Below the pieces are notes generated by a model that did not search any database, was not told the origin of the DNA, and saw only the letters and a list, made by a program, of their open reading frames with translations. A stretch of 64,000 bases of DNA, from the IMG/VR virus record IMGVR_UViG_3300036832_000803, positions 5,727 through 69,726 of that record. One strand, given 5' to 3'. Source of the DNA: a virus. Made by a program: the position numbers and the translations under genes. Shown piece by piece: positions 11,037-63,122 of the stretch (position 1 is the first letter of the stretch; every line of letters starts with the position of its first letter).

Positions 11037-11088
11037 GATGACTCCTTTTCAAACAGCCCGTCGCGATGGCTTCCCATCCGACGAAGCT

Positions 11089-24611: not shown

Positions 24612-24694
24612 CGGCTCATCTCCTTTGTTTGTCCGCACGCAAAGGCCCTATGGCGTCATGCCGGTGCTTTTGGCGCGCGTTTGTCAAAAAAGAT

Positions 24695-24832
24695 GAGGAA
24701 AATCAAAGGGAAAGGGCGGACTCTGACTCCGTCAATCTAGGTTCGAATCCTAGTCCCCCAGCCAATTGATTTTCCTCGGTTTTCCCAAAATCTAAGCCAG
24801 AACAGGTAGGCCAGTTTACAGGGCAGTTTACC
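24695..24832. mobile_element. attP: core = 3' half of tRNA-Gln(CTG), 24716-24764
   Basis: GCGGA-CTCTGAC-TCCGT..CTAGG-TTCGAAT-CCTAG-TCCCCCA-GCCA with no 5' half; 12-bp inverted repeat GAGGAAAATCAA/TTGATTTTCCTC flanks it; CAGTTTAC direct repeats at about 24812-24831; integrase nearby. Confidence 0.85.
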
Positions 24833-24941: not shown

Positions 24942-25217
24942 CTATCGCCGCCGCGCCTCATGCGCGGCAACGGAGATGTGCCGCTGCTCGGTCGGCTCGT
25001 CGAAAACAAGCTTACACACTTGGAAGCGAACTCCCTCGATCTCGCCATTGGCCTCGTCGATCTGTCCATCAGCAAGGCGTTGGATTTTGGCCGCCGCCTC
25101 GTCCGCATCGCCCGCCACCACCGACACCGCGAACGTCGCCGTCACCAAGCCGGCATAGACCTTGCGCTCCGCCGGCGGCCGTGGCGGCACCACCGTCGGT
25201 TTCCAGCGCTTGCTCAT
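24942..25217 (-). CDS. Small hypothetical protein between integrase and attP
   Basis: ATGA overlap with integrase stop; GGGAGG SD. Confidence 0.5.
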   Translation of the reverse strand: MSKRWKPTVVPPRPPAERKVYAGLVTATFAVSVVAGDADEAAAKIQRLADGQIDEANGEIEGVRFQVCKLVFDEPTEQRHISVAAHEARRR

Positions 25218-26497
25218 TTCGCCCTCCCGAGATTCTGCGTCGCGAGCTTGGCGAGCCGCGCCTCGCGCTCGGCCCTCGCCCGCTGCCGCGGCGTCAACGG
25301 CCGCGCCCGCTTCGCCTTGCCCGGCTTGAGCCGCACCACATTGTTCGGAAGCACCGTCGGTACCTTGCGCGCTGCCGCTGCATTGAGCCGCCGAATGGTG
25401 TCCAGTTCGAGCTTCTCAATCGCACCGCGCACCATCTCGTCGTCGCGTTTGATGTAGTTGGCATCGAGAATCGAAGCGATCTCCTTGAGGCTGTGGCCGG
25501 TGATCATCGCAATGGTGCGATCCGGGTTGCCGGCGAGCGCCAGCCGCGTTGCCGCCGTTCCGCGCAGATCGTTGAAAGTCAGATTGTCCACATTGTCGCG
25601 CGGTTGCATCAGCCCCGCCTTGATGCTGTACGTGCGCCAAGACGAGCGCAAACCGTTGGGGCCGTCCCGTTTGCCGATCTTCCACGGCTGCCCGTGCTCA
25701 TTGAGCAGGATATGCGTGGCGTCGCTGTAGCGCTCTTTTTTGGCGTCGAGCAATGCCTTCAACGGGCCGCCTACCGGGATCGAGACGGGCACCGGATCGC
25801 GGCGCTTGCCGATGCTCTTGTGTTGCACGAGGTTGAGATGGCTGCCGTCGTAGGCCGCGAGCCTGACGCGCACCAAGTCGCCTTGCCGCTGGCCGGTCCA
25901 TAGCGCCAGGATCAGCGCCTCTTGCAGATGGGGCGGCGCCACGTCGAGGAAACATTTCTCGTCGTCGAGCGACCACACCTTGTCGCGCCGGTTGCCGCGA
26001 TAGCTCTTGTGGCGGCCATGGCAGGGATTGAAAATCAGATCGCCGTCGTCGACCTTGAGCGAGAGGATCGCCGACAATACCGAAAGCGTCATGTCGGCCT
26101 GCCGCGCGCCAATCTGGTCGACCAGTTTCGCATGCCAGCGCCGGATCACGCCGCGAACGACCGGCTCGCGGAAGAGCCGCACCGGCGCTTCGCCGAACTC
26201 CGCTTCGATGCGTGGCATCACCTTGATGTAATCATGCCGCGTGCGCTCGGCGTTGTCCTTGAACTCGCGACTGTCGCAATACTCGCGCATCCAGAGCAGG
26301 AAGCGGCCCGGCGGCAGCGTCTTGCGGTCCGTCACTTTCTGCCAGAACTCGGCGACGAAATCTGCCGTGCCGTGCGGTGCCAGAATGCGCGGCGCCCCCT
26401 TGCCGCGCCACGCAAAATAATAAATGGCCTCGCGGCCGCCGGCCAAAATCTTCGGGACGGCATGGAGCCCCTTCAACGGTTTGCATTTCTCGCACAT
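25214..26497 (-). CDS. int: Tyrosine recombinase / phage integrase
   Basis: TGQRQGD (R), FNDLRGT (H/N..R), ITGHS, DANY (Y); adjacent attP. Confidence 0.9.
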   Translation of the reverse strand: MCEKCKPLKGLHAVPKILAGGREAIYYFAWRGKGAPRILAPHGTADFVAEFWQKVTDRKTLPPGRFLLWMREYCDSREFKDNAERTRHDYIKVMPRIEAEFGEAPVRLFREPVVRGVIRRWHAKLVDQIGARQADMTLSVLSAILSLKVDDGDLIFNPCHGRHKSYRGNRRDKVWSLDDEKCFLDVAPPHLQEALILALWTGQRQGDLVRVRLAAYDGSHLNLVQHKSIGKRRDPVPVSIPVGGPLKALLDAKKERYSDATHILLNEHGQPWKIGKRDGPNGLRSSWRTYSIKAGLMQPRDNVDNLTFNDLRGTAATRLALAGNPDRTIAMITGHSLKEIASILDANYIKRDDEMVRGAIEKLELDTIRRLNAAAARKVPTVLPNNVVRLKPGKAKRARPLTPRQRARAEREARLAKLATQNLGRAK

Positions 26498-51614: not shown

Positions 51615-52037
51615 CTAGCGCCCTGTTGGCTGGCCTTGCGACGAGGCGCGGCCCATGACGTTGCCGCGCGCGTCATAGAGCGTCGTCGTGCCGCCAGTCG
51701 TCGTCGTCGTGCCGATGGTGCGCCCCTGGGCGTCGCGGAACGTCGTGGTGCTGCCAGAGCTATCGGTTGTGGCCGTGCCGACGCTGCGCCCGTCCGGCCC
51801 ATAGAGCCGCGTCTGTTCGCCGGTCATCGCGGTGCCGGCCGCGAATAAGACGGCGCCGATCGCCATCCCTGCCAAGACGGCGAGCCACGGCGCGCGCGTC
51901 TTAGGACGCCGGTCGTCGTCGTCGTGCCTGACCGTTACGTGGACCCGGTTCATCGCCCGGGCCAGAATGACACTCACGAGCACTGCTAACACGCAGAGGC
52001 TCAATATGACCAACCAACCAAGCAATTCCGATTTCAT
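51615..52037 (-). CDS. Membrane-anchored protein with three T.(Y/F).A.G..(V/I)G repeats
   Basis: Two hydrophobic segments; TRLYGPDGRSVGT / TTFRDAQGRTIGT / TTLYDARGNVMGR. Confidence 0.55.
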   Translation of the reverse strand: MKSELLGWLVILSLCVLAVLVSVILARAMNRVHVTVRHDDDDRRPKTRAPWLAVLAGMAIGAVLFAAGTAMTGEQTRLYGPDGRSVGTATTDSSGSTTTFRDAQGRTIGTTTTTGGTTTLYDARGNVMGRASSQGQPTGR

Positions 52038-52209
52038 TTTCCTAGCTCCGTTTGTGGAACGCGCGCGGCGAAATCTGCCGCGTCGATCATTTGGATCACC
52101 GGCTCACTGTGCCCGCATTTGCAGGCGCGACCGTTCCAGGAATCGGCGCCGCCTTTGCGCCAGCCGCATCGCATGCAGTACGGATGCAACGATCGCGTAT
52201 TCTCGTGGT

Positions 52210-53196
52210 TCATTGGAGCGCTCCCTTTGCGAGTTGCACGGCGGCGGCGTGGCCGGCTTCGGCTTCGTCATAGGTCGCATAGCGCCATTGTGTGAGATCG
52301 CGCACGCCGCCGAAGATCATGGTTTCAAACAACATGGGGCGCCCTGAATGCACGGCGAAGCCGATGAAAATGGTCGACACGCACGCGTCGCCTACATCGG
52401 TTTGCCAAAGCCGGTCTGACAGCGAGCCGCGCTCGCCGACAACCTTGATCCATTCAGAAAATTCGACGCGCACCGGCACGCGATCTTTGAGAATGTAGTG
52501 GGCGCCGAGCGCGTTAAATTGGTCGCGCAATGTTTCATCGATCATCGTGCTGCACTCCGCAGTAATTCGGCGAGCGTGCGCTTGGCGCGGTCGAGTTGGT
52601 CGCGGGTGACGCCGAGCACGTTGCGGTTCGGATCGTCGGCTTGCGCTGCAAGCCGCGCTACTTCGGCGATCATGTCGGCGACCGCGTCGTAAAGATCAGG
52701 ACTCTGGTTCATCGGCGGTGCCTTATGATGCTGCCGTGCTGGATGATGTAGGACTCGGGCGCGAACGCGATGGCGACCGTCGGGATCGGCGGCTTGGCGT
52801 TGCGCCCGTCGTCGACCGTGGTCGCCGTCATGTGGGCGCTTACGATCTTGATCGCGTTTTCTTCGGTCGCCGGATAGATCGCGGCGCAGACCTCGCCGTC
52901 GCACAGTACCTCGACGATTTCCTTGTCGTGGAACGCGGTCGCCAGTCGAAACGTGATCGTCATGTCGGCGCCCTCTCGATCTCGATCGGTTCGTTGTTGG
53001 GCAGGCAGCGATAAACCCCGGCGTCGTCGAGCAGCAGCGGCATCGTGCCGATGCAGCCGGCGATCATGGCCTCGGTCGCGAACACGTCCCACTCGATGAA
53101 CAGCGAGCGCTCGTTCTCCGACGCGATCATGATCCGGCCCGGTACTTCCTTGCCGCGCCACCTGATGATGATGGAGTCGCCGGTGCACAGCGTCAT
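52210..53196 (-). other. Four coupled small genes (52210-52545, 52542-52712, 52709-52963, 52960-53196)
   Basis: ATGA overlaps; VST.F.G..P.LFETMIFGG..RY.T..EA.AGH phage motif in the first. Confidence 0.6.
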
Positions 53197-54092
53197 GTTC
53201 CGGTTCTCCGATACGGAAGCACGATGCGGCCTTGCGCGGCGATCTGGCGTAGCTCGCGCTCCATATGGCCGCACGTTTTGGCGATGGCGTTGAGTCGATC
53301 GGCCATCGTGCCGGCGCGATCAAGGCTGACGCGCGCGGCCACGACGCATTCGCCGTTGCGCCAGCCGGCGCCGAGAAGCTTCGACGCCTCTTCGATCCGC
53401 GCCTCCATCGCGGTGAGCCTGCGCGCCTCTTCGCGCGACGGCTTGGGCGCGGCATCGCCGAAGATGTCGGCTTGGGTCGCGCCTTCGATGATGGCGTCGA
53501 CCGCGTTGCGCACCGCCTTCCAGCCTTGCAACTGCCCGCGGCTGATCAGGCGCAGAATGCGATGCTGTGCCCGGTGATCGGTCAGGCGGGAAATTTCCAT
53601 CGCCTGTTGCCGGTCGATCTGGTCGGCCTCGAATAGCCGCAAGATCGGCGGCGCCAGATTGAGCAGCTGGAGCCGCCAGCGCACCCGGAAGACGGCACAG
53701 CCGACTTGCTTGGCGATTTGCTCGGGCTCCAACCCGCGTTTTGCCAGTCGCGCAAAGCCCCTCGCCTCTTCGATCGGCGAGATGTCCTGGCGCTGAAGGT
53801 TCTCGACGATCGCGGCAATGTCGCGGGCGAGATCGTCCAGGCGAACGACGGTCGCCTTGATGGTCGAGAAGCCCTTGATGCCGCGGTCGGCCAACAGCTT
53901 GTGCGCGCGCCAGCGGCATTCGCCGGCGACGATCTCGAAGCGGCCGCGACGGTGCGGGCGCACGGTGATCGCTTGCAGGAGCCCTTGCGCGCGGATGGAT
54001 GCGGCCAAGCCTTCGATATGCGCCGCGTCGAACGTCTTGCGCGGCTGATCCGGATTCGGATCGATCTTGGCGAGGGCGATGTTGCGCGTCAC
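53193..54092 (-). CDS. ParB/Spo0J-family protein
   Basis: I.PNPDQPRKTFD, GLLQAITVR, IVAGECRWRA, ENLQRQDISPIEEA, HTH. Confidence 0.9.
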   Translation of the reverse strand: MTRNIALAKIDPNPDQPRKTFDAAHIEGLAASIRAQGLLQAITVRPHRRGRFEIVAGECRWRAHKLLADRGIKGFSTIKATVVRLDDLARDIAAIVENLQRQDISPIEEARGFARLAKRGLEPEQIAKQVGCAVFRVRWRLQLLNLAPPILRLFEADQIDRQQAMEISRLTDHRAQHRILRLISRGQLQGWKAVRNAVDAIIEGATQADIFGDAAPKPSREEARRLTAMEARIEEASKLLGAGWRNGECVVAARVSLDRAGTMADRLNAIAKTCGHMERELRQIAAQGRIVLPYRRTGT

Positions 54093-54130
54093 AGGTGACT
54101 CCGTTTGGTTGTTCGCCGTTTGCAGCGGCG

Positions 54131-54652
54131 TTAGTGGCGCGTCCCGCGGGCCGGAAGGAAGCCGACCATGCGGCCGTGGGATTGGAACGTGCCGCCGCGC
54201 GGGACGTGCGGAAGGTCGGTCAGCATTTCGAGCGGCGCGAGGTACGGGCGCCGATGGCGCGGCCGAATGATGCGGCGATGCGCGGCCAGCATTCCCGCAT
54301 CCAGGTCTTCGCCCAGGATCGAAACGACTTCGACCCGATCCGGGTGCGCGGCGACGCCGTGTTGTTCGATAAAGGCAATCTCGTCGTCGGAGATCAAGCG
54401 CGCAAGCGTCCAGGATTCAAAGACGAATATATAGCGCACGACATCGCGAAGCTCGAAGTAGGCGCGGACCATCGCGACGGCCATGTCTTTGTTTGGGTGC
54501 GGCGGCTCCAATTCGAAATATTCGCTGGTCGCCGTGACGCCGTGCCACGTCGGGGAGACCACGCCGGTTTTGTTGAATAAGCGTTCGCTCCCGGTGGAAG
54601 CAAACGCGATCATGTCGCGCAAATCTTTTTCGCTCATGTCGGCCTCGGCCAT
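54131..54652 (-). CDS. Hypothetical protein
   Basis: F..ESW...HPDRVEVV...ED motif; stop abuts the repeat. Confidence 0.65.
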   Translation of the reverse strand: MAEADMSEKDLRDMIAFASTGSERLFNKTGVVSPTWHGVTATSEYFELEPPHPNKDMAVAMVRAYFELRDVVRYIFVFESWTLARLISDDEIAFIEQHGVAAHPDRVEVVSILGEDLDAGMLAAHRRIIRPRHRRPYLAPLEMLTDLPHVPRGGTFQSHGRMVGFLPARGTRH

Positions 54653-55266
54653 TTTTTCGAGCGATTGAATTGCAGCGGCTCGCCGTCGCGGCCCTGCTCA
54701 TAGGCGCTCTCGATCACCCCGGCGATCAGGCCCGCCAGATAGATGCGCGCCGTATGGCTGATGGCGCCGGGCTTGAGCAAGTCCATGATCGCGAACGCCG
54801 CGACCTGGGCCGGTCGGGCGTCTGGCGCGCGCGGATCATGCAGGCTCGGATAGGTGTGTTCTGGTTCCGGGTCGGGCGCTTTGCCTTGCGCGAAGGTGGC
54901 GCCCATGCTGGCGAAGCCGGCCTGATAGATACGGCCAAGCTCGGCCATGCCCTTGGCATGCTCGCGCAAGCCGGGTTCGGCCGCGCCCTTGGCGATGAAA
55001 TCGAAAGCATCGGCCTGCGAGCGCATCACCGCCAGCATGCCGGGATGCGCGTTGACGAAATAGAGCGCAATGTCGCGATCTTCCTCGCGCTGGAAATTGG
55101 CGATCAACATTCCAACGTCGTCAGCCCTTGCAATGCCGTAATCCCCGAGCGACCCAGGCGCCTTTTGCCACGGCGTCGACGAATGCTGGCCGCCAGTCGG
55201 GTTGGCGGTATCAATCAAATGCCGGATGTAGGCGGCTTCGGCTTCGATCTGTTCACGCGTGACCAT
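54634..55266 (-). CDS. Hypothetical protein (long paralogue of 10308..10571)
   Basis: Shared MVTR start and C-terminal ~70 aa. Confidence 0.65.
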   Translation of the reverse strand: MVTREQIEAEAAYIRHLIDTANPTGGQHSSTPWQKAPGSLGDYGIARADDVGMLIANFQREEDRDIALYFVNAHPGMLAVMRSQADAFDFIAKGAAEPGLREHAKGMAELGRIYQAGFASMGATFAQGKAPDPEPEHTYPSLHDPRAPDARPAQVAAFAIMDLLKPGAISHTARIYLAGLIAGVIESAYEQGRDGEPLQFNRSKKWPRPT

Positions 55267-55280
55267 GTCCGTTTCGCCTT

Positions 55281-56087
55281 TCAATGGTGCTGCGGGACGC
55301 GCAGCGGGTTGGGATAGCCGGCGGGCAGGTAGGATTGCAGATCGCGCTTGATGTAGTGGCGCGCGTCGAGCCAATTGAGCACGGCGACCATGCGGTGCGT
55401 GTAGTCGCACCAATCGGTCGTCTTCGTCATTGGCAGATAGTTGACGCGGCCGACCTTGTAGAGATCGACGAATTCGTGCGTCGCCTTGACGATCGCAATC
55501 GACGCGTCAACGTCCAGCGTCGGTTCAAGCGAAACCCAAGTGAAGATGCCGCGATCGTGGAACGCCTTGATGGCCGCGATCCGATCGGCCGGGAGCGCGG
55601 CGTTGCGTTCCCATTTTTTCGAAAAGCGTTCGTCGAGCGACGTGAGCGTGGAAGCGAAGGCGTCGCGATCCGCGCGGAATAGATCGATGTCGCGGAGCGC
55701 GCGCGTGCCGCCCTTGGTGAGCGTGCAGATGCCGAGCCCGGCGCCGATCAGTGTTTCGAGCGTCGCCCGCGTCAGGCTGTTGTCGCCCGGATGGTACGGG
55801 TCGGTCGTGAACGAAAGCATGACCTGGGCGCGCACGCCCGCGGCCTTGTACTTGGCGGCGTCGGAGCGCAGTACGTCGAGATAGTCACGGCGCGGGACAG
55901 CGCCCGCGTCGAATTCCGCGCGGGGCTGATGCGTGACCAGCGGCACGTAGCAATAGGCGCAGCCGTGGCCGCAGCCGCGATAGGGATTGGTCGCGAGCGG
56001 CGAGTATTCGCCGGCCTGCCCTTTCGGGGCGTAGATGATGCGGCAACCCCGAACGGAGACGCCGTCGTCATTTAGTGTCGGTTTCAT
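55281..56087 (-). CDS. Radical SAM protein (spore photoproduct lyase-like clade)
   Basis: NPYRGCGHGCAYCY (CxxxCxxC), SFTTDPY, LTKG, WVSLEP. Confidence 0.85.
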   Translation of the reverse strand: MKPTLNDDGVSVRGCRIIYAPKGQAGEYSPLATNPYRGCGHGCAYCYVPLVTHQPRAEFDAGAVPRRDYLDVLRSDAAKYKAAGVRAQVMLSFTTDPYHPGDNSLTRATLETLIGAGLGICTLTKGGTRALRDIDLFRADRDAFASTLTSLDERFSKKWERNAALPADRIAAIKAFHDRGIFTWVSLEPTLDVDASIAIVKATHEFVDLYKVGRVNYLPMTKTTDWCDYTHRMVAVLNWLDARHYIKRDLQSYLPAGYPNPLRVPQHH

Positions 56088-56290
56088 GCGATCCTCTTCG
56101 ATGCGCGCGGGCGGTCGACCAGCAGCGTGATCGCAACGCGGGTCTGTCGCTTTATCGGCTGCTCGCCTTGCTCCCAGCGGATGACGGTGCGTTTCGATAC
56201 GCCGAGTCGCGCGCCGAATTCGGTCTGCGTAAGGCCGAGACGTTCACGCGACTGGCGGACGAATTCGGCGTCGGTTGGGTGCGGTGTCAT
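56084..56290 (-). CDS. Small XRE HTH regulator
   Basis: RERLGLTQTEFGARLGVSKRTVIRWEQGE; GGAG SD. Confidence 0.85.
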   Translation of the reverse strand: MTPHPTDAEFVRQSRERLGLTQTEFGARLGVSKRTVIRWEQGEQPIKRQTRVAITLLVDRPRASKRIA

Positions 56291-56319
56291 GGGGTCTCCG
56301 GTTCATATTGGTCCCTAGC

Positions 56320-56351
56320 GTTTATATGTGCCAAACTGTCACCTGCGTCAA
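56320..56351 (-). promoter_or_regulatory. Promoter with GTG(A/C)CA-GTT-TGGCAC operator
   Basis: TTGACG -35; operator 56328-56342; ATATAAA downstream. Confidence 0.65.
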
Positions 56352-56360
56352 TGTGTTTTG

Positions 56361-56408
56361 GTCGGCAAAGTGTTGGGCCAGCTTTCGCAAGTCGGCAAAG
56401 TGTTGGGC
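56361..56408. repeat. 18-bp direct repeat with 30-bp period
   Basis: GTCGGCAAAGTGTTGGGC at 56361-78 and 56391-408. Confidence 0.85.
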
Positions 56409-56597
56409 AGACTTTCCCTTGACCCGACTCGATGCGGGCGCCATATCGATTTGCGCCCGCCGCATTCTCCCGCCCAGGCGATGCTGTGGCGTCCGGGTCT
56501 TGCAACGGCTCGGTTTTTGTTTCGATCGCTGGGGAGTTTGTTTCCGTTTGTTTGGCTCCCCCCTGGGGCCGGCTTTGCAGGCGCGGTCCCGTCGAAC

Positions 56598-56636
56598 AAA
56601 AAAAAGCCCCCGGCATCTCTCGCGGATGTCGGGGGC
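56598..56636 (-). terminator. Rho-independent terminator
   Basis: GCCCCCGACATC-loop-GATGCCGGGGGC followed by T8 on the minus strand. Confidence 0.85.
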
Positions 56637-56650
56637 GGTTGTTTCCAGAT

Positions 56651-57115
56651 TCAGTGCGTCAATCCCTTCGCCGGTTCCGGCCGGGCGATGTTCCAGCCGG
56701 GCGACTCATCGTAGCCGGGCAGGCGCATGATCGCGCGCTTGCGGATGGCATCGATGATCGTGCAGGCGATCGATGATTTGTAATCGTCCGTTTCGCACGC
56801 CTGATAGTCGAAGCATTCGCAAGCCTTCAGGATCACGAGCGGCGACGGCGTTCGCGCGAACGGCCGGAACGTGTAGCCCGCGGCGTCGTCGCCGATCGAG
56901 CCGGGCAGATCGCCCAGCGCGTCGTCGGGATAGCGGTGGCGAACGCTGCGCTCGTTTTCGGTGAGCAGGATGCGACCGATCTCGGTCGCGTTGGTGCTGA
57001 CGATCTCGATCAGCGTTTCGTTAGCCGTGTAGACGACGCCGCGGCCGTAGCTCTTGCACAAGGCGAACGTAAGCAAGGCGTCGATATGATCGTGATCGAC
57101 GATGTAGGCAGACAT
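56651..57115 (-). CDS. Conserved hypothetical protein of mobile elements
   Basis: MSAYIV...HID.L, N..SV..RY, LKA..C.DYQ.CE...Y..S.A. Confidence 0.7.
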   Translation of the reverse strand: MSAYIVDHDHIDALLTFALCKSYGRGVVYTANETLIEIVSTNATEIGRILLTENERSVRHRYPDDALGDLPGSIGDDAAGYTFRPFARTPSPLVILKACECFDYQACETDDYKSSIACTIIDAIRKRAIMRLPGYDESPGWNIARPEPAKGLTH

Positions 57116-57162
57116 TGGTGACTCTCCGTTTGGTTTGACGCCGTTTGCAGCGGCGGTCGGGT

Positions 57163-58456
57163 TTAAGCTAGGGGCTCGGTTGATCGCCAGTAGTGCATCA
57201 CCTTGAGGCCCGGCGGATTGGCGAAGGTCCGAAGGTGGGAGATCACGAGCCCGCGCGCGACGAGACCGTCGAGCGTGGCCTGGGTCACGCCGCGCGCTTC
57301 GAGCGCTGGGCCGGTGGCGCCGGTGCTACAGGTTGCCAGGAGCGCAAGGGCCTTGCGCTCCGCAGCCGTCAGTTTTTGATTGTTGGTCATTGTTTCGGGA
57401 TCGCCAGCAGCGTCTTGACCCAGCCGAGATCGTTCATCGCGTCATTCAGTTTTTGAATGTACGGAAGCAACGACCCATAGGAGGCGCAAAACTTAAGTGG
57501 TCCGGCCGCATTAAGTTCCTCTTTGACTTCGCTCGTAACCTCTGCGCCGATCTTGTGGCGTTCGTCTTCGGGGATTTCCTTTACAAGGACGTTCAACAAA
57601 TCGAGGTTATCGACGGCCAAACCATCGCGCTTCCCAACGAACGGGACATCGCAAAAATGCGAGGCGATCATGGCCTTGGTTAGGACTTTCGAGAACGATG
57701 GCAGCTGCTCCCGAATTCCAGGCCATGCGGCGGATGACGTAAGGGCAGAGGGCAGTTCGGCGTGTGCCGGGAGTGACGCGCAGAGCGCGATTGTCGCGGC
57801 GATTAAGGTCTTTCTCATTTTGGTGAACTCCGTTTGGTTGTTCGCCGCTTTGCAGGCGGCGTGATGCTGGATGCATCAATGCTGCGGCCCGCGGGCCGCA
57901 GTGTTTGATGGATCGGCTTTTACAGAACGAAGCGATCTTCACTGGCCTCGCGGTTCATTGGGCGATTCCTTTCCGGTAGCTCACGACCAGATCGAAGGTC
58001 GCGGCGTTGAAGACCTGATAGGTGATGGCGGGACATTGCGTGCTGCGCCATTGCGCGATGTCGCGGGCCAGGGCTTCGTCATAGACGAGCGCGAGCCCTT
58101 GCGACTTGGCTGTGCCGCCGATCGCGGAATACGCGACGATGGAAAAGAGTTGGTTGATAGGTTCGTGGTCGTTTGGCATTGGTGACTCCGTTTGGTTGGC
58201 CGCTTTGCAGGCGGCGCGGTTATCTCAATCTTTCGTCGCCGTACTTTTCGAACAACGCCGCACGTTCCTTATCCTCTTCGGATAGGGCGGTGTCATCGGG
58301 CCAGTCGTCCATCGCGTCGATACGACCGACGGCCTCTTTCAATTCGTTGAATGAGGCAGTGGCGCCGTCAGGATCGCCGCTCGCGAGCGCGTCGCGGACG
58401 TTGCGAACGCCACGCTCGATTTCGTCGAGCAAAGCGTCCAGGTCGGTGTGGTTCAT
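57163..58456 (-). other. Four small genes (57163-57390; 57387-57818 with signal peptide; 57955-58179; 58220-58456)
   Basis: Three start directly after the repeat element; 57818 begins MRKTLIAATIALCASLPAHA. Confidence 0.7.
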
Positions 58457-58514
58457 GGTGACTCCTTGTGTTTGATTGGTGAGCCGGATGGCCCGTAGGC
58501 CACCCGGTAGGTTT

Positions 58515-60020
58515 TTAGTGGGCGCCAACGTCGATCCCAGGCGCTCCCCACGGCGCGGTCGCGATCAGCGAGCGCACCGCTTCGGGATAGCCGGTCACGG
58601 CGAACAGCACGGGGCAATGCGGCTCCGGGCCGGGGTCGCCGATGTAGAGATCGGTGAAGCACACGATCAGCGACGCGTCGTCGTGCTCTTCGGCAACGTA
58701 ACGGAAGAGCGGGCGAAGGTCGGTCCCGCCGCCGCCGCGCGGATCGAAGGTGATCTCGTCGCCGGTGCGGTACGTGTCGACCCGGGTGACCCGAGTGTCG
58801 CCGTAGACCGCAACGACTTCGTCGACCACGCCGTCATCGAGCGCGGCCTGGGCTTCGGTCGCGATCAGGCGCAGCGCGACCTCGTCCATCGAGCCGCTGG
58901 TGTCGATCAGGAACATCGCCTTGTTGACGCCGTCGCGTTGCGAGCCCGGGAGGATCAAGCCTTGCCCGATAAACCGACGATTGGGCCGGTTCCAAGTTTC
59001 GGTTCGCAGCGCGCCCTGGTCGAACCATGCCCGCAACACTTCGCGCCAGTCTTGCGTCGGATTGTTCGATCGCTCGATCTCGCGCGTAATGTGGCCGGGC
59101 AACTGTCCGACCGCCTTCGCGATCGAAGCCGCCTGACGCACGACCCGGTCCCACGTGCTATCGATGTCCGAAAGGTCGGCGGTGTCGTCGGCGGCGTCCA
59201 GCACTTCGCCGCAGCGGCCGGGGTCGTTGGATTGCTGCGGGCCGTTGCCTTCGCCGTCGGGTTCGCCATCGGCATCGGCGCCGCGACCGGGCTCGTCGCC
59301 GCCTTCGTCGCCGTCGCCAGCTTGGCCGCCGGGCTGGTCGCCGGCTTCGCCTTCGTCGCCGTCGTCAGCGTTCGAGCCTGACGTTTCGTCGCCGTCGTCG
59401 GCTTCGTCGCCTTCGCCGTCGCCAGGATTGCCCTGGTCGTCGGCGTCGTCGCCTTCGCCCTGGTCGCCTTTGCCTTCGGCGTCGTCGGCTTCGTCGCCCG
59501 CGTCCTGGTCGTCGGCGTCGTCGCCGTCCGAGCCCGACGATTGTTCGTCGTCTGACTCGTCGTCGCCCTCTTGCGGTTGCGGCGGTTGCGGCTGCGGCTG
59601 CTGGTCAAGCTCGCGGCTCCGGTAGATGTCTTCGGCGGACATCCCGCGGTATTTTTCGTCGAGTAAGACCCATGGCGGAAGATCGAAACCCTCGTCGCGA
59701 AGGTCGACGTTGATCGCGTAGTCGCAAGCCTCGTTCCACTTTTCAGGATCGCGGCCCCGCCGCCGCGTCGAGTGGTGCCGCGCGTCGTGCTCGCTTTCGT
59801 GGGCCTGCACCGCGAGCAGCTGCATCTGAGTCAGCGTCGCGATGAAGTCCGGATTGTAGAAGTGGCGCTTTGAGTCGGTCGCCATCGTCTGTACCTTGCG
59901 CGACGGCACGGGCTCGACGTTCGAAACCAGCACGCCATAAAAGCGGCGCGCCATGATCAACTCGGCGCGCGCCTTCAGCACGCGCTCGGTCGCGGTGCGG
60001 GTGACTTGGTCGGTTTCCAT
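58515..60020 (-). CDS. DUF2201-type metallopeptidase + VWA protein
   Basis: TMATD, HESEH (HExxH), WN.ACDYAIN, acidic linker, IDTSGSM MIDAS, GGGGTD, FTD. Confidence 0.9.
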   Translation of the reverse strand: METDQVTRTATERVLKARAELIMARRFYGVLVSNVEPVPSRKVQTMATDSKRHFYNPDFIATLTQMQLLAVQAHESEHDARHHSTRRRGRDPEKWNEACDYAINVDLRDEGFDLPPWVLLDEKYRGMSAEDIYRSRELDQQPQPQPPQPQEGDDESDDEQSSGSDGDDADDQDAGDEADDAEGKGDQGEGDDADDQGNPGDGEGDEADDGDETSGSNADDGDEGEAGDQPGGQAGDGDEGGDEPGRGADADGEPDGEGNGPQQSNDPGRCGEVLDAADDTADLSDIDSTWDRVVRQAASIAKAVGQLPGHITREIERSNNPTQDWREVLRAWFDQGALRTETWNRPNRRFIGQGLILPGSQRDGVNKAMFLIDTSGSMDEVALRLIATEAQAALDDGVVDEVVAVYGDTRVTRVDTYRTGDEITFDPRGGGGTDLRPLFRYVAEEHDDASLIVCFTDLYIGDPGPEPHCPVLFAVTGYPEAVRSLIATAPWGAPGIDVGAH

Positions 60021-60076
60021 TGTGGTGACTCCGTTTGTTTGAAGGGAAGCCCCGGCGTTTGCAGCGCCGGGTTAGG

Positions 60077-60979
60077 TCAGGCCAGAAATTTCGAAACCGT
60101 GGCCACGATCTCGTCGGCGCTTTTCTGCACCGACTCGCGCGCGGCATCGTTCTTACGAAGATCGGCCGCGTCTTCGGCGCACAACTCTTTCTGAATGCGC
60201 TTGATGACCGCAGCGAGTTTCGGGTCTTCGGTCAGGTTGAAGGCCGGTAACAGGCCCACGAGATCGCGGACGTTGTCGATCAGCGAGTCGAGGAAGAAAC
60301 TGCGCTTGCCCTTGCCCTTGGCGCCCGCGTTGTATTCCTTCAGCTTCGTGCCGACGTGTCCCACGACTTCGATGATCTGCTCGGCGGTGTGGCGCATGGC
60401 GTCGTCGACCACGCGAGACGACGTTTCCGCGATCTCGCGCCGGATGTCGTCGACCGTGTCGTCGTCAAGATCGGAGCGAAAGTCGGCCGCGTCAGGAAAC
60501 GGCATGATGCTCATTTCGAGCTTGAATTTCGCGCGGATTTCCGAAACGTCCGGATAGTCGGACGAGTCGAACATTCCGTTGAGCGCGCGCTTGCGCTCTT
60601 CGACGAAGCGCGGATAGCCGGCCGCGAATTCGTTTGCGGCCTGCTCAAACTCGCGCTTGAGCTTGCGGAACTCGTCGGAGAATTTGACGAACAACGCGTT
60701 GGGCAGGATGCGCGGGCCTTCGTCGGCCCACGGGCGCGTCATGCTGTAGTGCAGCGTCCGCGCGGTGGAAACGAGCGTGTTGATCTTGGCCAGTCGCTCG
60801 GCTTCGATCAGGAGCTTGTTGTAGCGGCCGGCGTTGTCGGCGGCGCCGTGCTTGCGGTTGACTTCGTCGGTCACACGCTTGTCGAGCTTGCGCGCGGTCC
60901 ACTGCGAGATGTTGACCGAGACCAGCACGGCCTTGCGGGCGAGCGGCGTGGCGATGTTCTTCGTTTTCGTCTTTGTCAT
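60077..60979 (-). CDS. DUF3150-like protein
   Basis: LVSVNISQW.ARKLD, K.LI, PW...G.RILP, DYP...IR.KF, FNLT.DP.L; between the AAA and VWA genes. Confidence 0.65.
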   Translation of the reverse strand: MTKTKTKNIATPLARKAVLVSVNISQWTARKLDKRVTDEVNRKHGAADNAGRYNKLLIEAERLAKINTLVSTARTLHYSMTRPWADEGPRILPNALFVKFSDEFRKLKREFEQAANEFAAGYPRFVEERKRALNGMFDSSDYPDVSEIRAKFKLEMSIMPFPDAADFRSDLDDDTVDDIRREIAETSSRVVDDAMRHTAEQIIEVVGHVGTKLKEYNAGAKGKGKRSFFLDSLIDNVRDLVGLLPAFNLTEDPKLAAVIKRIQKELCAEDAADLRKNDAARESVQKSADEIVATVSKFLA

Positions 60980-61091
60980 GGGTGACTCCGTTTGGTTTGA
61001 TTGGAGGGGGCGGCGCCGATTTGCAGGCGGCGGCCTTGTGTTCGACCATGAACACTATCGGACGGCGCGAACCGCGCGCCGCCCTGAGTGC

Positions 61092-62114
61092 TCACGACAT
61101 CTGCAAGATGATGTCCTGATTTTCGACCGCCCATGCGCCATAGGCCGTCGTCTCTTTCAGCTTCTCGTCGCGCGTGGTGGCATCGTGAACCACCAGCACT
61201 TCGCTTTCACGCGGCAGGCGCTTTGCATACTTGATGATGTTCGGAAGTGTCTTGCGGGTCGCCATCCGTCCGAGCCCGGTGCAAACCGCGTACCGGGAAG
61301 ATGCATCGGTCGGCAACGGCGCGGTCGCAGGGCTCGCGATGATGTCGTCGAGCGATCCCAGGTTCCGGTAAAGCTCGATGAAGCCATCAAGCTCCGCGGC
61401 CGGCGCGTCGCCGATATGCGATGCGAACAGCCGCAGGCGTTGCGTCTTCGGCGCGTTGACGTACTTGGCGGCCTTGGTGAGCGACCGCGGCGTCGGAAAG
61501 GCGTTCTCGTCGCCCTTCGGCATGACGTGAATTAGCTCACGTCGAAGCCGCACGAAGGCGACAACCTCGGGCGCGACATTGCTGCGGTTCGCCCAGGCAC
61601 ACCACGCGTTGACATCGGGCGTGATGAAGAGATGGGCGAACCGATTGCGCAACGCGGTCGGCATGCGTTGCGCCGCGGCTCGATCGGAAACGCGATTGCC
61701 GGCGGCGACGATGACCCAGCCGTCGGGCAACGTGTACTCGCCCACGCGCCGATCGAGCACAAGGCCGAACAGCACCGCCATCATTTGCGGGCTCGCCGTG
61801 TTGATCTCGTCGAGGAAGAGAATGCCGCGCTCGCCGTCGCGTTCAGCGTTCGGCAATTCGTCGGGGATAAGCCATCGCGTCGTGCCCTTGGCGAGATCGG
61901 GCACCGGGATGCCGCGAACGTCGACGGGCTCGCGAATGTTGGCGCGATACTCGATGACCTTCCAGCCGCGGCCGGCGCCGACTTGCCATGTGGCTTCCGA
62001 TTTGCCGATGCCGGGCGGACCCCAAAGCATGACGGGGTCGCGCCCGTCGATAAGGATATTGAGAAGGCTGACCGCTTCGGCGATCGTGACGCATTGCTCA
62101 AGAATGGCAGACAT
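61092..62114 (-). CDS. MoxR-like AAA+ ATPase
   Basis: GPPGIGKS, LFLDEIN, AAGNR..D, ALRNRF, TPRS. Confidence 0.9.
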   Translation of the reverse strand: MSAILEQCVTIAEAVSLLNILIDGRDPVMLWGPPGIGKSEATWQVGAGRGWKVIEYRANIREPVDVRGIPVPDLAKGTTRWLIPDELPNAERDGERGILFLDEINTASPQMMAVLFGLVLDRRVGEYTLPDGWVIVAAGNRVSDRAAAQRMPTALRNRFAHLFITPDVNAWCAWANRSNVAPEVVAFVRLRRELIHVMPKGDENAFPTPRSLTKAAKYVNAPKTQRLRLFASHIGDAPAAELDGFIELYRNLGSLDDIIASPATAPLPTDASSRYAVCTGLGRMATRKTLPNIIKYAKRLPRESEVLVVHDATTRDEKLKETTAYGAWAVENQDIILQMS

Positions 62115-62155
62115 TGGGTGACTCCGTTTGTTTGATGCCGTTTGCAGCGGCGGGT

Positions 62156-62353
62156 TTAGATGACAGTCGGACGATCGTCGTCGTCCTGGTGATATGCAAA
62201 ACGGCCGACGACCGCGCCGTTCGTGTCGCTGATGGCACCAGATTGGTCGCCTTTCGCGACGCGGTCGGCGACATTGCGCAGGATCGTGAAGGCTTCGTTT
62301 GCGAAGTTGTCGACGAAGGCTTCGTTCTCGGTGTTGAATGTGACGGTGAACAT
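62156..62353 (-). CDS. Small hypothetical protein
   Basis: T.N.AF....E...ILR..A.....G.I.D.NG..VG motif; repeat copies on both sides. Confidence 0.7.
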   Translation of the reverse strand: MFTVTFNTENEAFVDNFANEAFTILRNVADRVAKGDQSGAISDTNGAVVGRFAYHQDDDDRPTVI

Positions 62354-62396
62354 TTAGTGACTCCGTTTGTTTGATGCCGTTTGCAGCGGGCGGGGT

Positions 62397-62618
62397 TTAG
62401 GTAACGTCGGGATATTCCGCATAGTCATCGTGGTCGGTTGCGTACCAAGCTCGCTTGGCCTCGACCGCGCGGCGCAGGAACTTTTGCGCTTCGAATAGTT
62501 CATCGAGCGCTTTCTGTCGGCTTTCGTCCGTGAACGAATGCGCCACGGACATTTCAGCGCACGCGATCGCGTTGTGCGCACTGTCGATGATGCGGTCGGC
62601 TTTGGTTCGAAAGTTCAT
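62397..62618 (-). CDS. Small hypothetical protein (first gene of the block)
   Basis: ACGGAGTCACC SD element before ATG 62618. Confidence 0.65.
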   Translation of the reverse strand: MNFRTKADRIIDSAHNAIACAEMSVAHSFTDESRQKALDELFEAQKFLRRAVEAKRAWYATDHDDYAEYPDVT

Positions 62619-62629
62619 GGGTCGGTGAC

Positions 62630-63090
62630 TCCGTGTTCTGGACCGCACCGCAAAGCGTCCGAAGGTCTGGCGATTGGTTGCGCGCCGTCGTTTGCCAAGA
62701 CGAGCAACAATCCAATCGGCCGCTTTGCGATGCGGTTTGATGCGAGATGCATCAATGACGCCGCCCGCGTGGGGCGGCGCTTTGATGTATTCAAATCTGA
62801 AAATTTGGTTGGGGCGCTTTGTCTGATGGCAATATGACCGCGCTAAGCAGTTCCCCGTTTCGTCATCGCCGCAATCGTCGCTTCCCACTTGAACCCCGCC
62901 ATCGTCCCCGCGATCGATTCGCGAGCGGCACCGGGCACAGGAGCTATTTTCCGCATGACGGTAATGGTGGCTGCGCCCGTGGGCCTCGCCGGTTGCCATG
63001 CGATTGGCGTTCCGCCGGAGGTTTGCCGTTCGACCAGGGGCTGCTTAGGTTCCGGAACCGCAGGTGGAACTAGCTACTGCTGCCACCGTC
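62630..63090 (-). ncRNA. Candidate structured leader RNA
   Basis: Long hairpins 62642-62736 and 62746-62790; 62955-62/63085-92 pairing; lies between promoter and first gene. Confidence 0.45.
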
Positions 63091-63093
63091 ATT

Positions 63094-63122
63094 AATATAG
63101 TGCCAAACTGGCACCTTTGCAA
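63094..63122 (-). promoter_or_regulatory. Promoter of the leftward block with palindromic operator
   Basis: TTGCAA-17-TATATT; GTGCCA-N3-TGGCAC (63100-63114) fills the spacer. Confidence 0.75.

Follow-up and report, generated by a model that had tools for sequence, protein, structure and literature searches.

Most genes of one accessory operon of an uncultured soil phage are preceded by the same unit, which consists of a stable RNA-type hairpin and a fixed ribosome-binding box. On the minus strand of the window (i.e. the whole 64,000-nt stretch that was analysed), the region from 52.0 to 62.7 kb holds 8 full copies, 2 box-only copies and 2 degenerate ones, a full copy being made up of a GC stem, the loop CTGCAAA, the returning GC stem, an A/C-rich linker, AAACGGAGTCACC and a start codon. 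We put about an even chance on the explanation, drawn from sequence comparison, that each copy serves as a per-gene mRNA cassette (for translation start and/or stability of the segment) and doubles as a recombination handle. The repeat would in that case be the standard gene-junction cassette of one accessory module.

This module, situated between lysis and terminase genes of the (temperate) phage, encodes a MoxR ATPase, a DUF3150 protein, a VWA/metallopeptidase, a ParB-like and a radical-SAM protein and several small ORFans, as well as an HTH regulator of its own (68 aa, 56084-56290). At its junctions the order is stop codon, 0-7 nt, GC hairpin, G-poor A/C-rich spacer, GGAG in the fixed box, and start codon. 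A larger, three-hairpin form occurs in the operon leader (62720-62780) and at two further places (61014-61084 and 57843-57901), and was recovered as family D13 by an independent repeat finder, which gave the same families for the other repeats (D2-D5). The parts are the following.

63094..63122, minus: predicted sigma-70-like promoter P1 of the upper operon (-35 TTGCAA, -10 TATATT, 9/12 match), whose 17-nt spacer holds the palindrome GGTGCCA-N3-TGGCACT (from sequence)
62720..62780, minus: three-hairpin unit as found in the leader, sharing 75% identity over 51 nt with 57856-57906 (D13) and made up of T (GC hairpin, 62759-62780), A' (hairpin, TGATGC...GCATCA, 62738-62754) and a B-like hairpin (62720-62735, loop ATCGCAAA), all three from sequence
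62616..62636, minus: box-only copy ACACGGAGTCACC (62624-62636) and ATG of a 73-aa gene (sequence and box search)
62351..62394, minus: full copy, 3-bp stem, loop 62380-62386, box 62356-62368, ATG of a 65-aa gene (D3)
62112..62155, minus: full copy, stem GCCG/CGGC, loop 62141-62147, box 62117-62129, ATG of the MoxR-type AAA ATPase
60977..61084, minus: three-hairpin copy and ATG of the DUF3150-like gene (sequence, box and loop search), with T (61060-61084), palindrome/hairpin A AGTGTTCA...GAACAC (61037-61056), B (5-bp stem under a 9-nt loop in which CTGCAAA lies at 61020-61026), a long CCUCC-tract linker and box 60981-60993
60018..60072, minus: full copy, 7-bp stem CCCGGCG/CGCCGGG, loop 60058-60064, CUUCC-tract linker, box 60024-60036, ATG of the DUF2201 metallopeptidase/VWA gene
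58454..58507, minus: UACG-tetraloop hairpin in the usual slot, followed by the second box-only copy ACAAGGAGTCACC (58457-58469) and ATG of a 78-aa gene
58177..58217, minus: full copy, stem GCCGC/GCGGC, loop 58204-58210, box 58181-58193, ATG of a 74-aa gene
57816..57901, minus: three-hairpin copy and ATG of a 143-aa gene, with T (57882-57901), A' (57862-57878), B (stem CGCCGC/GCGGCG, loop 57849-57855) and a box with one inserted T (57822-57835)
57113..57157, minus: full copy, stem CGCCG/CGGCG, loop 57144-57150, box with an inserted AG (57117-57132), ATG of a 154-aa gene
56600..56640, minus: predicted intrinsic terminator of the upper operon, 13-bp GC stem then T8 (from sequence)
56540..56590, minus: degenerate orphan copy immediately downstream of the terminator, followed by no ORF, loop word 56574-56580
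54090..54132, minus: full copy of the lower operon, stem CGCCG/CGGCG, loop 54119-54125, box 54094-54106, GTG of the ParB-like gene
52035..52062, minus: degenerate box half CAAACGGAGCTAGG (about 52040-52062) ahead of a 140-aa ORF (from sequence)

The gene-by-gene architecture on the minus strand, the tally of copies and all of the stems quoted in an earlier, sequence-only reading were found again as that reading had given them. Its further observation that the copies are co-oriented and confined to this block is borne out by the box, loop-word and model searches alike. With 0-1 mismatch, AAACGGAGTCACC occurs seven times, always on the minus strand (54094-62636); with two mismatches the copy at 58457-58469 is added, the sole other match in the window at this level being 11037-11049, and at up to three mismatches there are 23 matches versus 13.9 ± 3.6 in shuffles. 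The exact 12-mer of the box is found 0 times forward and 6 times in reverse in the 69,726-b record, all inside the block (control pattern 0/0). CTGCAAA has 18 matches versus 7.4 ± 2.8 expected, of which 10 are on the minus strand at 52118-62386, and the composite of loop word, stem of at least 3 bp and GGAG within 45 nt was found 7 times, compared to a mean of 0.055 and a maximum of 2 in 200 dinucleotide shuffles; the eighth full copy is the one with the 9-nt loop and 5-bp stem (61020-61026). The 8 copies score 21.4-28.7 bits in a covariance model of the hairpin, by construction, because they formed its seed, and the next best match in the window on either strand reaches 13.3 bits (E = 1.4). 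Box, loop-word, composite and covariance-model searches located no further unit elsewhere in the 69.7-kb phage record. All window copies lie on the gene strand within one module, 30 of the 31 covariance-model matches are gene-sense, and GGAGTCAC occurs 10/0, 6/1 and 9/0 times (forward/reverse) in the whole records of relatives, clustered in the same module.

The claim that the stems co-vary around a fixed loop was examined on 25 distinct copies, chosen by loop word and box within 45 nt (i.e. pairing was not used for the choice), and was confirmed. Pairing at the five inner stem positions is 88-96%, and GC/CG swaps occur there (e.g. GC 11, CG 10, UA 1), while paired cells overall amount to 72% versus 24-46% when the partner is slid, and none of 500 shuffles reached the observed covariation score. 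Among 84 control loop words without the strict box pattern behind them, 56 have a 0-bp stem, and of the 9 with stems of at least 4 bp, at least 4 are real copies with variant boxes. Within the same genome the stems differ and the loop is identical, which points to a constraint on the loop beyond gene conversion, because gene conversion alone would homogenise stems and loops alike. The comparison supports the hairpin as a real structure under selection.

The modules of these phages contain 96 distinct perfect hairpins with 4-nt loops, among which UNCG or GNRA loops number 18 when read sense versus 5 when read antisense (two-sided binomial, ~0.01 by our own estimate). Such tetraloops are extra-stable, and their enrichment on the gene-sense strand therefore favours a role in RNA. 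Wobble counts do not discriminate the strand (hairpin A, GU 6 vs AC 4), and the spacers fold more stably antisense in 58 of 84 cases, which is a composition effect. The predicted accessibility of GGAG is only 0.08-0.47, so the idea of an unstructured ribosome site is unsupported by folding, and the conserved UCACC after GGAG does not seem to be explained by rRNA pairing. No RNA run was found to contain the stretch. RNA-level control (antitermination, translation control or processing), as had been proposed for the element, is favoured by the selected structure, the gene co-orientation and the tetraloop bias, but a palindrome shared with a promoter points to DNA-level sites too (see below). In the sense RNA, the hairpin could act in one or both of two ways. 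It may be a structural insulator and 3'-exonuclease barrier, so that the start of each gene has an identical context regardless of the upstream sequence, or it may be a docking site for a trans-acting factor, which is suggested by the loop staying constant while the stems drift.

Related uncultured phages have the same architecture and the same MoxR-ATPase/DUF3150/VWA module, but the loop (consensus C-Y-G-N-R-A-N) and the ribosome-site box differ from lineage to lineage, so that the loop described as invariant is so within the window's lineage and not across relatives. The loop is CUUGCAA in L243, L245 and L251 and CCGCAAC in L252 to L255, whereas L250 carries CUGCAA or CUUGCA with box AAAGGTCAC at 7 successive junctions, each of them a GC hairpin, a run of 3-4 U and then two further hairpins. 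L262, where the ATPase shares only 39% identity, also has a box of its own, together with 10 gene-sense hairpins whose loops read CUGGAA(A) or CUGUGA. The pairing of this hairpin with the ribosome site, also claimed earlier, is usual but not strict: L351, L357 and L358 have only a tetraloop-capped hairpin with box AGGAGCAAC, the slot after the VWA gene is taken by a UACG-capped hairpin in both the window and L239 (the hairpin and box at 58454..58507 are conserved in L239, the gene behind them differs), and L247 has the box without any hairpin at 11.6-13.2 kb. Intact box and hairpin also stand without a gene behind the operon terminator in L239, L245 and L251, and these orphans count against an mRNA element, which would for the most part go untranscribed there. 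No Rfam family matches the element, and among deposited phages neither a match to it nor a close relative of the phage was found.

The sequence-only reading had also suggested that the repeats are homology handles for the exchange of single genes, and this is directly supported by gene content that differs by single cassettes with junctions in or at repeats. The difference between the window and L242 is exactly one unit of 65-aa gene plus repeat, with the crossover inside the repeat; the repeats on both sides of this gene are 95% identical over 40 nt (D3), and a soil-metagenome contig (run X1) joins 62134 to 62372, the same joint as in L242. Homology to L239 breaks off at three points (2 nt ahead of the 58458 ATG, at the 57115 ATG and at the 54130 stop codon), and homology to L241 begins at 62163, 8 nt before the hairpin. 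Because the intergenic DNA here is almost all repeat, breakpoints at repeats are not separable from breakpoints between genes, the two repeat-to-repeat joints excepted. At the DNA level, the 36-45-nt repeats would be homology tracts at which single genes are deleted, inserted or exchanged, plausibly by the RecT (PF03837, 9.6e-39) and YqaJ exonuclease (3.7e-13) that the phage encodes.

Whether the box and/or the palindromic parts are instead oriented DNA sites for the 68-aa HTH regulator, placing a stoperator-like roadblock or silencing at every junction in the lysogen and leaving ribosome use of GGAG secondary, is a question to which we think a positive answer rather unlikely. Palindrome A of the larger units and the palindrome that separates the -35 from the -10 of P1 belong to one family, with 7 copies in L251, and the P1 architecture (-35, palindrome in spacer, -10) is conserved in L241, L240, L244, L247 and L262. 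This palindrome, AGTG...CACT, is likely a DNA operator, and since it is shared with a promoter the spacers of the block are not wholly RNA-level. In addition, the box is conserved beyond the need of a Shine-Dalgarno sequence, is lineage-specific, occurs behind a terminator without a gene, and on the other strand (GGTGACTCC) starts with GGTGAC, resembling GGTGACA and GGTGCCA, the half-sites that make up the promoter palindromes; the HTH gene lies inside the module. We also counted for this rival that Pope et al., in their treatment of SAS, contrast these with the stoperators of cluster A phages. Against it, the box behaves as a ribosome site would, with a fixed distance of 5-10 nt to the start codon and, in all lineages, a GGAG or AGG. 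The promoter sites are palindromes but the box is one asymmetric half-site, and in L252 to L255 and L262 it is unlike the palindrome. Stem covariation with a fixed asymmetric loop and the sense bias of UNCG/GNRA are likewise unexpected of double-stranded DNA sites.

Two further explanations appear improbable to the same degree. In processive antitermination, the hairpins would be RNA signals of the boxB or put type, which a phage peptide reads or which act directly on RNA polymerase, reloaded at each junction so that transcription passes the weak terminator-like T hairpins that precede many genes in relatives. The GNRA core of the loop consensus in a short GC hairpin, the stronger constraint on loop than on stem, and the hairpin-and-U junctions of L250 fit such a role, but most window copies have no T hairpin to overcome, L351, L357 and L358 have a T-type hairpin only and no B hairpin, no N-like protein was noticed incidentally, and nut and put sites are known only as single sites close to the start of an operon, not ahead of each gene.

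The other would make the copies composite PeSL-type promoter cassettes, in which the loop word (CTTGCAA/CTGCAA) is the -35 and the box, ~16-17 nt downstream, the -10 region for an as yet unidentified sigma factor, yielding near-leaderless single-gene transcripts. The P1 -35 does read CTTGCAA, the loop word of L243, L245 and L251; the orphan copies directly behind a terminator resemble terminator-promoter cassettes; and the loop-to-box spacing peaks at 16-17 nt in 13 of 26 copies (our own count), but it spans 13 to 31. Furthermore, a sigma-70 scan gave 2 sites in 12.5 kb versus 2.1 expected and 0 at the repeats, GGAGTC is unlike a -10 hexamer, the sigma-factor domains PF04542 and PF08281 have 0 matches in the phage, and compensatory changes in the stem are not accounted for by a promoter.

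Least probable of all is that the repeats have no function of their own, being relics of cassette copying and exchange (duplication and gene conversion) in which only GGAG matters and any stable hairpin is tolerated: lineage-specific variants common to the copies within a genome (as concerted evolution would give), the degenerate copies at 56.57 and 52.05 kb and the hairpin-less boxes of L247 agree with it, but stems that diverge by compensatory changes around fixed loops, an architecture kept, in wholly different sequence, at ATPase identities as low as 39%, and the sense-strand UNCG/GNRA excess argue for selection.

As a per-gene mRNA cassette and recombination handle, the repeat would be kin of the SAS/ESAS and PeSL elements, which are known kinds.

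The element is real and non-random, and its architecture is conserved within a group of soil phages that are uncultured. A full copy consists of a hairpin with a GC stem and the loop CTGCAAA (hairpin B), an A/C-rich linker and a ribosome-site box holding GGAG, which sits 5-10 nt ahead of the start codon. Box AAACGGAGTCACC was found seven times in the window at 0-1 mismatch, every time on the minus strand (54094-62636), with one more copy at two mismatches at 58457. An independent recount arrived at the numbers of the sequence-only reading, i.e. eight full, two box-only and two degenerate copies, and also bore out its statement that the copies are co-oriented and confined to one block, as the exact box 12-mer occurs six times in reverse and never in forward orientation in the whole record and all copies are on the gene strand of a single accessory module. 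The loop word CTGCAAA is present 18 times where 7.4 are expected (ten of them on the minus strand of the block), and the composite of loop word, stem of at least 3 bp and GGAG within 45 nt seven times, compared to a mean of 0.055 in 200 shuffles. The same repeat families were recovered independently by a repeat finder, and a covariance model of the hairpin (R1) scored eight copies, all of them members of its own seed, at 21-29 bits versus at most 13.3 bits (E of at least 1.4) for the rest of the window. Hairpin B can also form the last part of a larger unit, in which a long GC hairpin just past the stop codon (T) and a palindrome or hairpin AGUG...CACU (A) precede it; this unit occupies many junctions in the relatives and three in the window.

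The module that carries the repeats is flanked by the lysis genes and the terminase genes and runs leftward (62.6-51.6 kb, minus strand); it is composed as follows:

Upstream end of the module, minus strand: two small open reading frames
Next, minus strand: MoxR-type AAA ATPase (PF07728; phrog_1297, 4.9e-84)
Next, minus strand: DUF3150-like protein (score under the Pfam cut-off)
Next, minus strand: DUF2201 metallopeptidase/VWA protein
After the VWA gene, minus strand: five small open reading frames
56600-56640, minus strand: intrinsic terminator, the true terminator of the upper operon
Beyond the terminator, minus strand: Xre-type HTH protein, radical-SAM protein, two open reading frames, ParB-like protein and more small open reading frames

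The trio of ATPase, DUF3150-like and DUF2201-VWA genes (58515-62114, minus strand) is the conserved core of the module, with distant homologues from many phyla in regions that resemble prophages, and the small genes flanking it vary between phages. The VWA/metallopeptidase gene contains a long acidic low-complexity stretch (59240-59570) with a D/E/G-rich repeat of 9-nt periodicity (repeat family D1). The source record, 69,726 bases in all with a completeness estimate of 96%, of which the window takes bases 5727-69726, is that of a temperate tailed phage, judging from its gene content: baseplate and tail proteins, an integrase, RecT, a YqaJ/RecE-type exonuclease, a primase-helicase, an MT-A70 methyltransferase, an endolysin and what we take to be a P27-type small terminase (apparent start ~63285, plus strand). 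The stretch, with a G+C content of ~62%, is present in two soil-metagenome runs, both of DNA and in the form of contigs, and no RNA run is listed as containing it.

A search with the ATPase yielded 25 viral contigs, 80 metagenome loci and 80 bacterial or MAG loci, the latter being distant (the best at 47% identity). The plan of the junctions is common to every lineage down to ~54% ATPase identity, and to L262 at 39%, while the sequences themselves are lineage-specific, with C-Y-G-N-R-A-N as the loop consensus over the lineages.

Loops and boxes of the junction element by lineage (L numbers are related uncultured phage and metagenome contigs)
Window, L239-L242, L244, L247, L356: loop CUGCAA(A); box GGAGUCAC(C)
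L243, L245, L251: loop CUUGCAA
L250, L347: loop CUGCAA or CUUGCA; box AAAGGUCAC, at seven junctions in succession
L252-L255, L348: loop CCGCAAC; box AAUGGAGA
L350: loop AUGCAAA
L262: loop CUGGAA(A) or CUGUGA, on ten hairpins in gene sense with two different stems; box GAAAGGAUCGAUG
L351, L357, L358: a single tetraloop-capped GC hairpin; box AGGAGCAAC

In the whole records of the relatives the box is likewise limited to the module and to the gene strand, and 30 of the 31 model matches are in gene sense. Outside this group the element was not encountered: the hairpin model found only three chance-level matches (E 0.9-4.6) in 1.24 Mb from the 80 bacterial loci with distant ATPase homologues, and a strict pattern returned ten stretches on nine IMG/VR contigs, each already found via the ATPase, and no IMG/VR contig from elsewhere. 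Among the matches listed for two looser IMG/VR scans chance matches predominate, and a metagenome scan gave mostly the same lineages, the new ones being L350, L351, L356-L358 and L397. The block had no megablast match in 50,697 deposited phages, and a 45-nt query with the element gave only chance matches there (E ~9); ATPase identity was below 60% in all 861 matching records of deposited phages, and 28.9-38.2% among the 25 matches listed.

Regarding the structure, copies were picked blind to pairing, as any CTGCAAA or CTTGCAA with a box within the next 45 nt in the window and nine related contigs; with one window copy that has an AG insertion in its box added, there were 25 distinct 21-mers, which align almost without gaps (A1). 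Covariation in this alignment speaks for a paired stem, since each of the inner five stem pairs is formed in 88-96% of the sequences with swaps between GC and CG (for example 11 GC, 10 CG and 1 UA), all seven stem pairs show changes on both sides, and the covariation score was matched in none of 500 shuffles, a figure that is not a probability because the copies are related. Sliding the partner by 1-3 columns lowers pairing from 72% to 24-46%, and the stem before the VWA gene reads CCCGGCG, UGCCG, CCGCG, CCCCG, CGCCG, CUCGCG or CCCCGC depending on the phage, paired in every case. These slid controls and orthologous comparisons are a stronger argument for selection than the shuffles, and on the strength of the alignments the hairpin is under selection. 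The full-length MAFFT alignment (A3) moved the register of one stem class, and for that reason only the gapless hairpin alignment was modelled; loops picked across lineages by a broad 7-mer criterion, a mixture of 6 and 7 nt in length, were left out of the counts.

Within a single genome the stems vary and the loop is identical, which means that the loop is under a constraint of its own and may be recognised by a factor or adopt a specific fold. The earlier description of a fixed loop on a covarying stem stands for the lineage of the window, but it does not extend to the group as a whole, as other lineages have other loops.

The element is very probably functional in the sense transcript, in so far as this can be judged from sequence comparison. 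This reading is favoured by the asymmetric and strictly oriented loop, by the compensatory stem changes, by the substitution of a UACG-capped hairpin for hairpin B (window, 58.5 kb, and L239) and by a strand test, in which UNCG or GNRA loops among 96 distinct perfect module hairpins with 4-nt loops were counted 18 times in sense versus 5 times on the other strand (~0.01 by our own binomial estimate). Wobble pairs in hairpin A amount to 6 GU versus 4 AC and do not distinguish the strands; a count for hairpin B was dropped because it took the C and A beside the loop for a pair. Folding energy turned out to be uninformative as a strand test: the antisense strand is the more stable one in 58 of 84 spacers, because the sense strand is A/C-rich. 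The idea of an unstructured ribosome site was not supported either, the predicted unpaired probability of GGAG being just 0.08-0.47 in a prediction for the copies alone. In the longest linkers (60040-60055 and 60995-61010, minus strand, before the VWA and DUF3150 genes) CUUCC and CCUCC tracts can pair with the GGAG of the box, and these copies have the lowest predicted accessibility of the Shine-Dalgarno sequence (0.08 and 0.12).

Of the alternatives, that of a binding site on the DNA draws on the fact that, against a pure RNA picture, box and hairpin are kept directly behind the operon terminator, with no gene after them, in L239, L245 and L251, even if the orphan copy at this place has decayed in the window. 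In addition, palindrome A and the palindrome that the module promoter has in its -35/-10 spacer form one family in six lineages, and the promoter-embedded palindrome must act as DNA; the 68-aa HTH protein probably has its operator in this family. The palindrome, AGTG-N(6-11)-CACT, is present in the window at 63094-63122 and ~56318-56350 (minus strand) and at 61037-61056, as well as in L251 (seven copies), L250, L241, L240, L244, L247 and L262; its inner bases change symmetrically, and it also occurs inside the intergenic three-hairpin units. The alternative that the repeats are promoters, as in the repeated cassettes of T4-type phages discussed below, is opposed by a sigma-70 scan for sites of the consensus type, which gave 2 promoter-like sites in 12.5 kb versus 2.1 expected, none of them at a repeat copy. 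A dedicated phage sigma factor was rejected as well, both the Sigma70_r2 and r4_2 domains being missing from the record in a domain search, and anticodon-loop mimicry, kissing loops, sigma-54, CsrA/Hfq sites, RegB-type cleavage and REP/RAYT were set aside as unsupported, part of them because the motifs failed across lineages.

Several other features of the region were observed. About 240 nt without an open reading frame lie between the orphan repeat and the HTH promoter (56300-56540, minus strand) and contain a 20-nt direct repeat, ctgcccaacactttgccgac, twice, which could be binding sites, e.g. for the ParB-like protein. The B-like hairpin sequence of the operon leader (62640-62740, minus strand) can alternatively pair ~80 nt downstream, just ahead of the first box, and could in this way switch between two structures before the first gene. 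The phage has far fewer GANTC sites than its shuffles (146 versus 329 +/- 17), and nine boxes each hold one such site in the form GAGTC (54097, 57120, 58184, 58460, 60027, 60984, 62120, 62359 and 62627). GANTC is the CcrM methylation site of Alphaproteobacteria, and the pattern hints at this host group and at possible methylation of the box; the methyltransferase of the phage itself (35836-37197) belongs to the MT-A70 family.

Besides its probable role in the transcript, the element is demonstrably a site of cassette exchange, as far as the compared genomes allow this to be read. The window and L242, whose ATPases are 89% identical, differ by exactly one unit, consisting of a 65-aa gene plus one repeat (alignment A2). 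The two window repeats that flank this gene are 95% identical over 40 nt, and the junction in L242 has its left part in common with the upstream junction of the window and its right part with the downstream one, the changeover lying within a shared 45 nt. A contig from soil run X1 has a joint (62134-62372) that represents the same deletion, which is supporting evidence rather than independent proof because flank lengths are not shown. Furthermore, long homology with L239/L241 ends at 62163 (8 nt ahead of the hairpin), at 60077 (stop codon) and 60042 (linker), at 58458 (2 nt short of an ATG) and 57115 (the ATG), in the latter two cases with a different gene beyond, and at 54130 (stop codon). 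The repeat after the 75-aa gene is followed by a 154-aa gene in the window and by a 69-aa gene in L239, and in a contig from soil run X2 by the 74-aa gene that the window has at another place. A joint of 59994 to 62126 in X2 is best accounted for by the aligner putting a repeat on a paralogous copy, and not by a deletion.

Nearly all intergenic DNA in this region is repeat, so that most of these breakpoints show only that genes were exchanged 'between genes', and the repeat-to-repeat indel is the specific evidence for exchange at the repeats. The proposal that the repeats serve as homology handles is in this way upheld for the unit that differs between the window and L242, but not by the other breakpoints. 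RecT-type recombination systems need only tens of bases of homology, and the RecT/YqaJ pair of the phage is a plausible engine of the exchange.

Taken together, we would put at about even the chance that the repeat is both an mRNA cassette and a recombination handle, the remaining weight being spread over the alternatives of DNA binding, antitermination, promoter activity and, at odds with the selection on the hairpin, no function at all. A more specific and rather unlikely version is that the hairpin loop (C-Y-G-N-R-A-N) and the extended box together label the junctions as belonging to a private post-transcriptional regulon, with the labels doubling as recombination sites. A factor encoded by the module or elsewhere by the phage would then read the loop or the box on every mRNA junction and turn expression of the entire accessory module on or off, via translation or mRNA decay, and loop and box would co-evolve with this factor in each phage lineage. 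The labels would at the same time be the recombination sites of a recombinase-free, RecT-driven cassette system resembling an integron, in which a captured gene would at once come under the control of the module.

Phage accessory regions are a trial ground for new genes, often for defence or counter-defence, and how such genes are captured and expressed is poorly understood. The useful features of the present repeat, i.e. clear structural covariation, a loop that is more constrained than the stem and natural variants differing by one gene-plus-repeat unit, make it a clean test system, with the practical limit that phage and host are uncultured. Two questions could be addressed with it: whether cassettes of this type serve mainly for expression, mainly for recombination or for both, and whether the start-associated repeats of mycobacteriophages, which were described 15 years ago and have had no explanation so far, have RNA-structured counterparts elsewhere. 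It would also be a natural case of the standardised, insulated translation-start unit that synthetic biologists design.

As for known systems, no Rfam family was matched by the hairpin, at gathering or at permissive thresholds. At the gathering threshold Rfam 15 gave nothing in the whole window but a borderline tRNA match at 24694-24761 (plus strand; 29.1 bits versus a gathering score of 29, and no ARAGORN call). This match adjoins the integrase gene (25214-26497), and a possible reading of it is a fragment of a tRNA that belongs to the attachment site. Only chance-level matches were obtained with E up to 5 for the block (one, to a miRNA) and with E up to 1 for L250, L245 and L239 (one). A literature search found no description of the repeat family and nothing nearer than the SAS/ESAS and PeSL elements. 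By these searches the repeat family is new.

Lambdoid boxB/nut hairpins and the put RNAs of HK022 are short GC hairpins with a GNRA-like loop core in early or accessory phage transcripts, and resemble the element in that the constraint on the loop sequence exceeds that on the stem. The loops described here contain GCAA, GGAA or GUGA, but as 6-7-nt loops with a 5' C-Y. Antitermination would build on this likeness, but nut has one site per operon near its start, as opposed to eight or more copies here, one per junction, and neither a boxA-like conserved partner at the repeat copies nor an N-like protein was noticed. Intercistronic stabiliser hairpins, REP-type palindromes and the RNase III sites of the T7 early genes are hairpins in polycistronic transcripts as well, and a stable hairpin just past the stop codon could similarly shield the RNA segment upstream of it or indicate where processing takes place. 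The stems here are, however, too short (4-7 bp) for a substrate of RNase III, and, unlike stabilisers and REP sequences, the element is fused to the ribosome site of the next gene and private to one phage module instead of genome-wide in a host.

With integron attC arrays the module shares co-oriented small promoterless genes that each have a hairpin-forming repeat, relatives that differ by whole gene-plus-repeat units, and a terminal orphan repeat. The hairpins differ from attC in being only 17-21 nt long and lacking the attC box structure, and no integron integrase stands beside the array, the only tyrosine recombinase (Phage_integrase family; 25214-26497) being ~26 kb away. By the sequences at the joints, the exchange looks like ordinary homologous recombination in repeats of 36-45 nt.

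The sequence-only reading had named the mycobacteriophage and T4-type repeats as analogues of unrelated sequence. The PeSL (promoter-early stem-loop) cassettes of T4-type phages are, in the passages of Arbiol et al. 2010 (PMC2839356) and Comeau et al. 2014 (PMC4122927) drawn on here, small repeated regulatory cassettes around small non-essential open reading frames in a plastic region, and consist of a strong sigma-70-like promoter and an efficient terminator. Recombination between copies leads to insertions, deletions and replacements among close relatives, as is also found here. Unlike a PeSL as described in those passages, the present repeat holds a ribosome site inside a polycistronic operon with one promoter and one terminator; none of 15 terminator-like sites is a B hairpin, hairpin B in the window being followed by A/C-rich sequence without a T run, and in L250 the stem of the T hairpins is followed by a run of only 3-4 U.

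The SAS/ESAS of cluster K mycobacteriophages, which had no known function in 2011 (Pope et al. 2011, PMC3203893) and of which the role was still termed unverified in the cited part of a 2025 paper (PMC12699233), come closest together with PeSL. As far as the cited text of Pope et al. describes them, they are short asymmetric boxes with a Shine-Dalgarno core a few bases ahead of many start codons (PMC3203893), in one orientation and only in the non-structural part of the genome, as is the window box, with an inverted repeat ahead of about half of the copies and with consensus variants by sub-lineage. The 13-bp SAS consensus as given there (PMC3203893) has no match in the window at up to two mismatches, and host and phage groups differ. 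Moreover, the ESAS arms are 17-bp repeats conserved in sequence, of which the departures do not support RNA pairing according to the authors' statement in that text (PMC3203893), whereas the arms in the window are 4-7 bp long, freely variable and covarying round a fixed loop. Because the SAS consensus is absent, the arms covary (which those of ESAS do not) and promoter and terminator are lacking, the element belongs neither to SAS/ESAS nor to PeSL. By analogy, it would work like a blend of the two, in which a start-associated box of the SAS kind is combined with an RNA-like hairpin and with gene shuffling of the PeSL kind.
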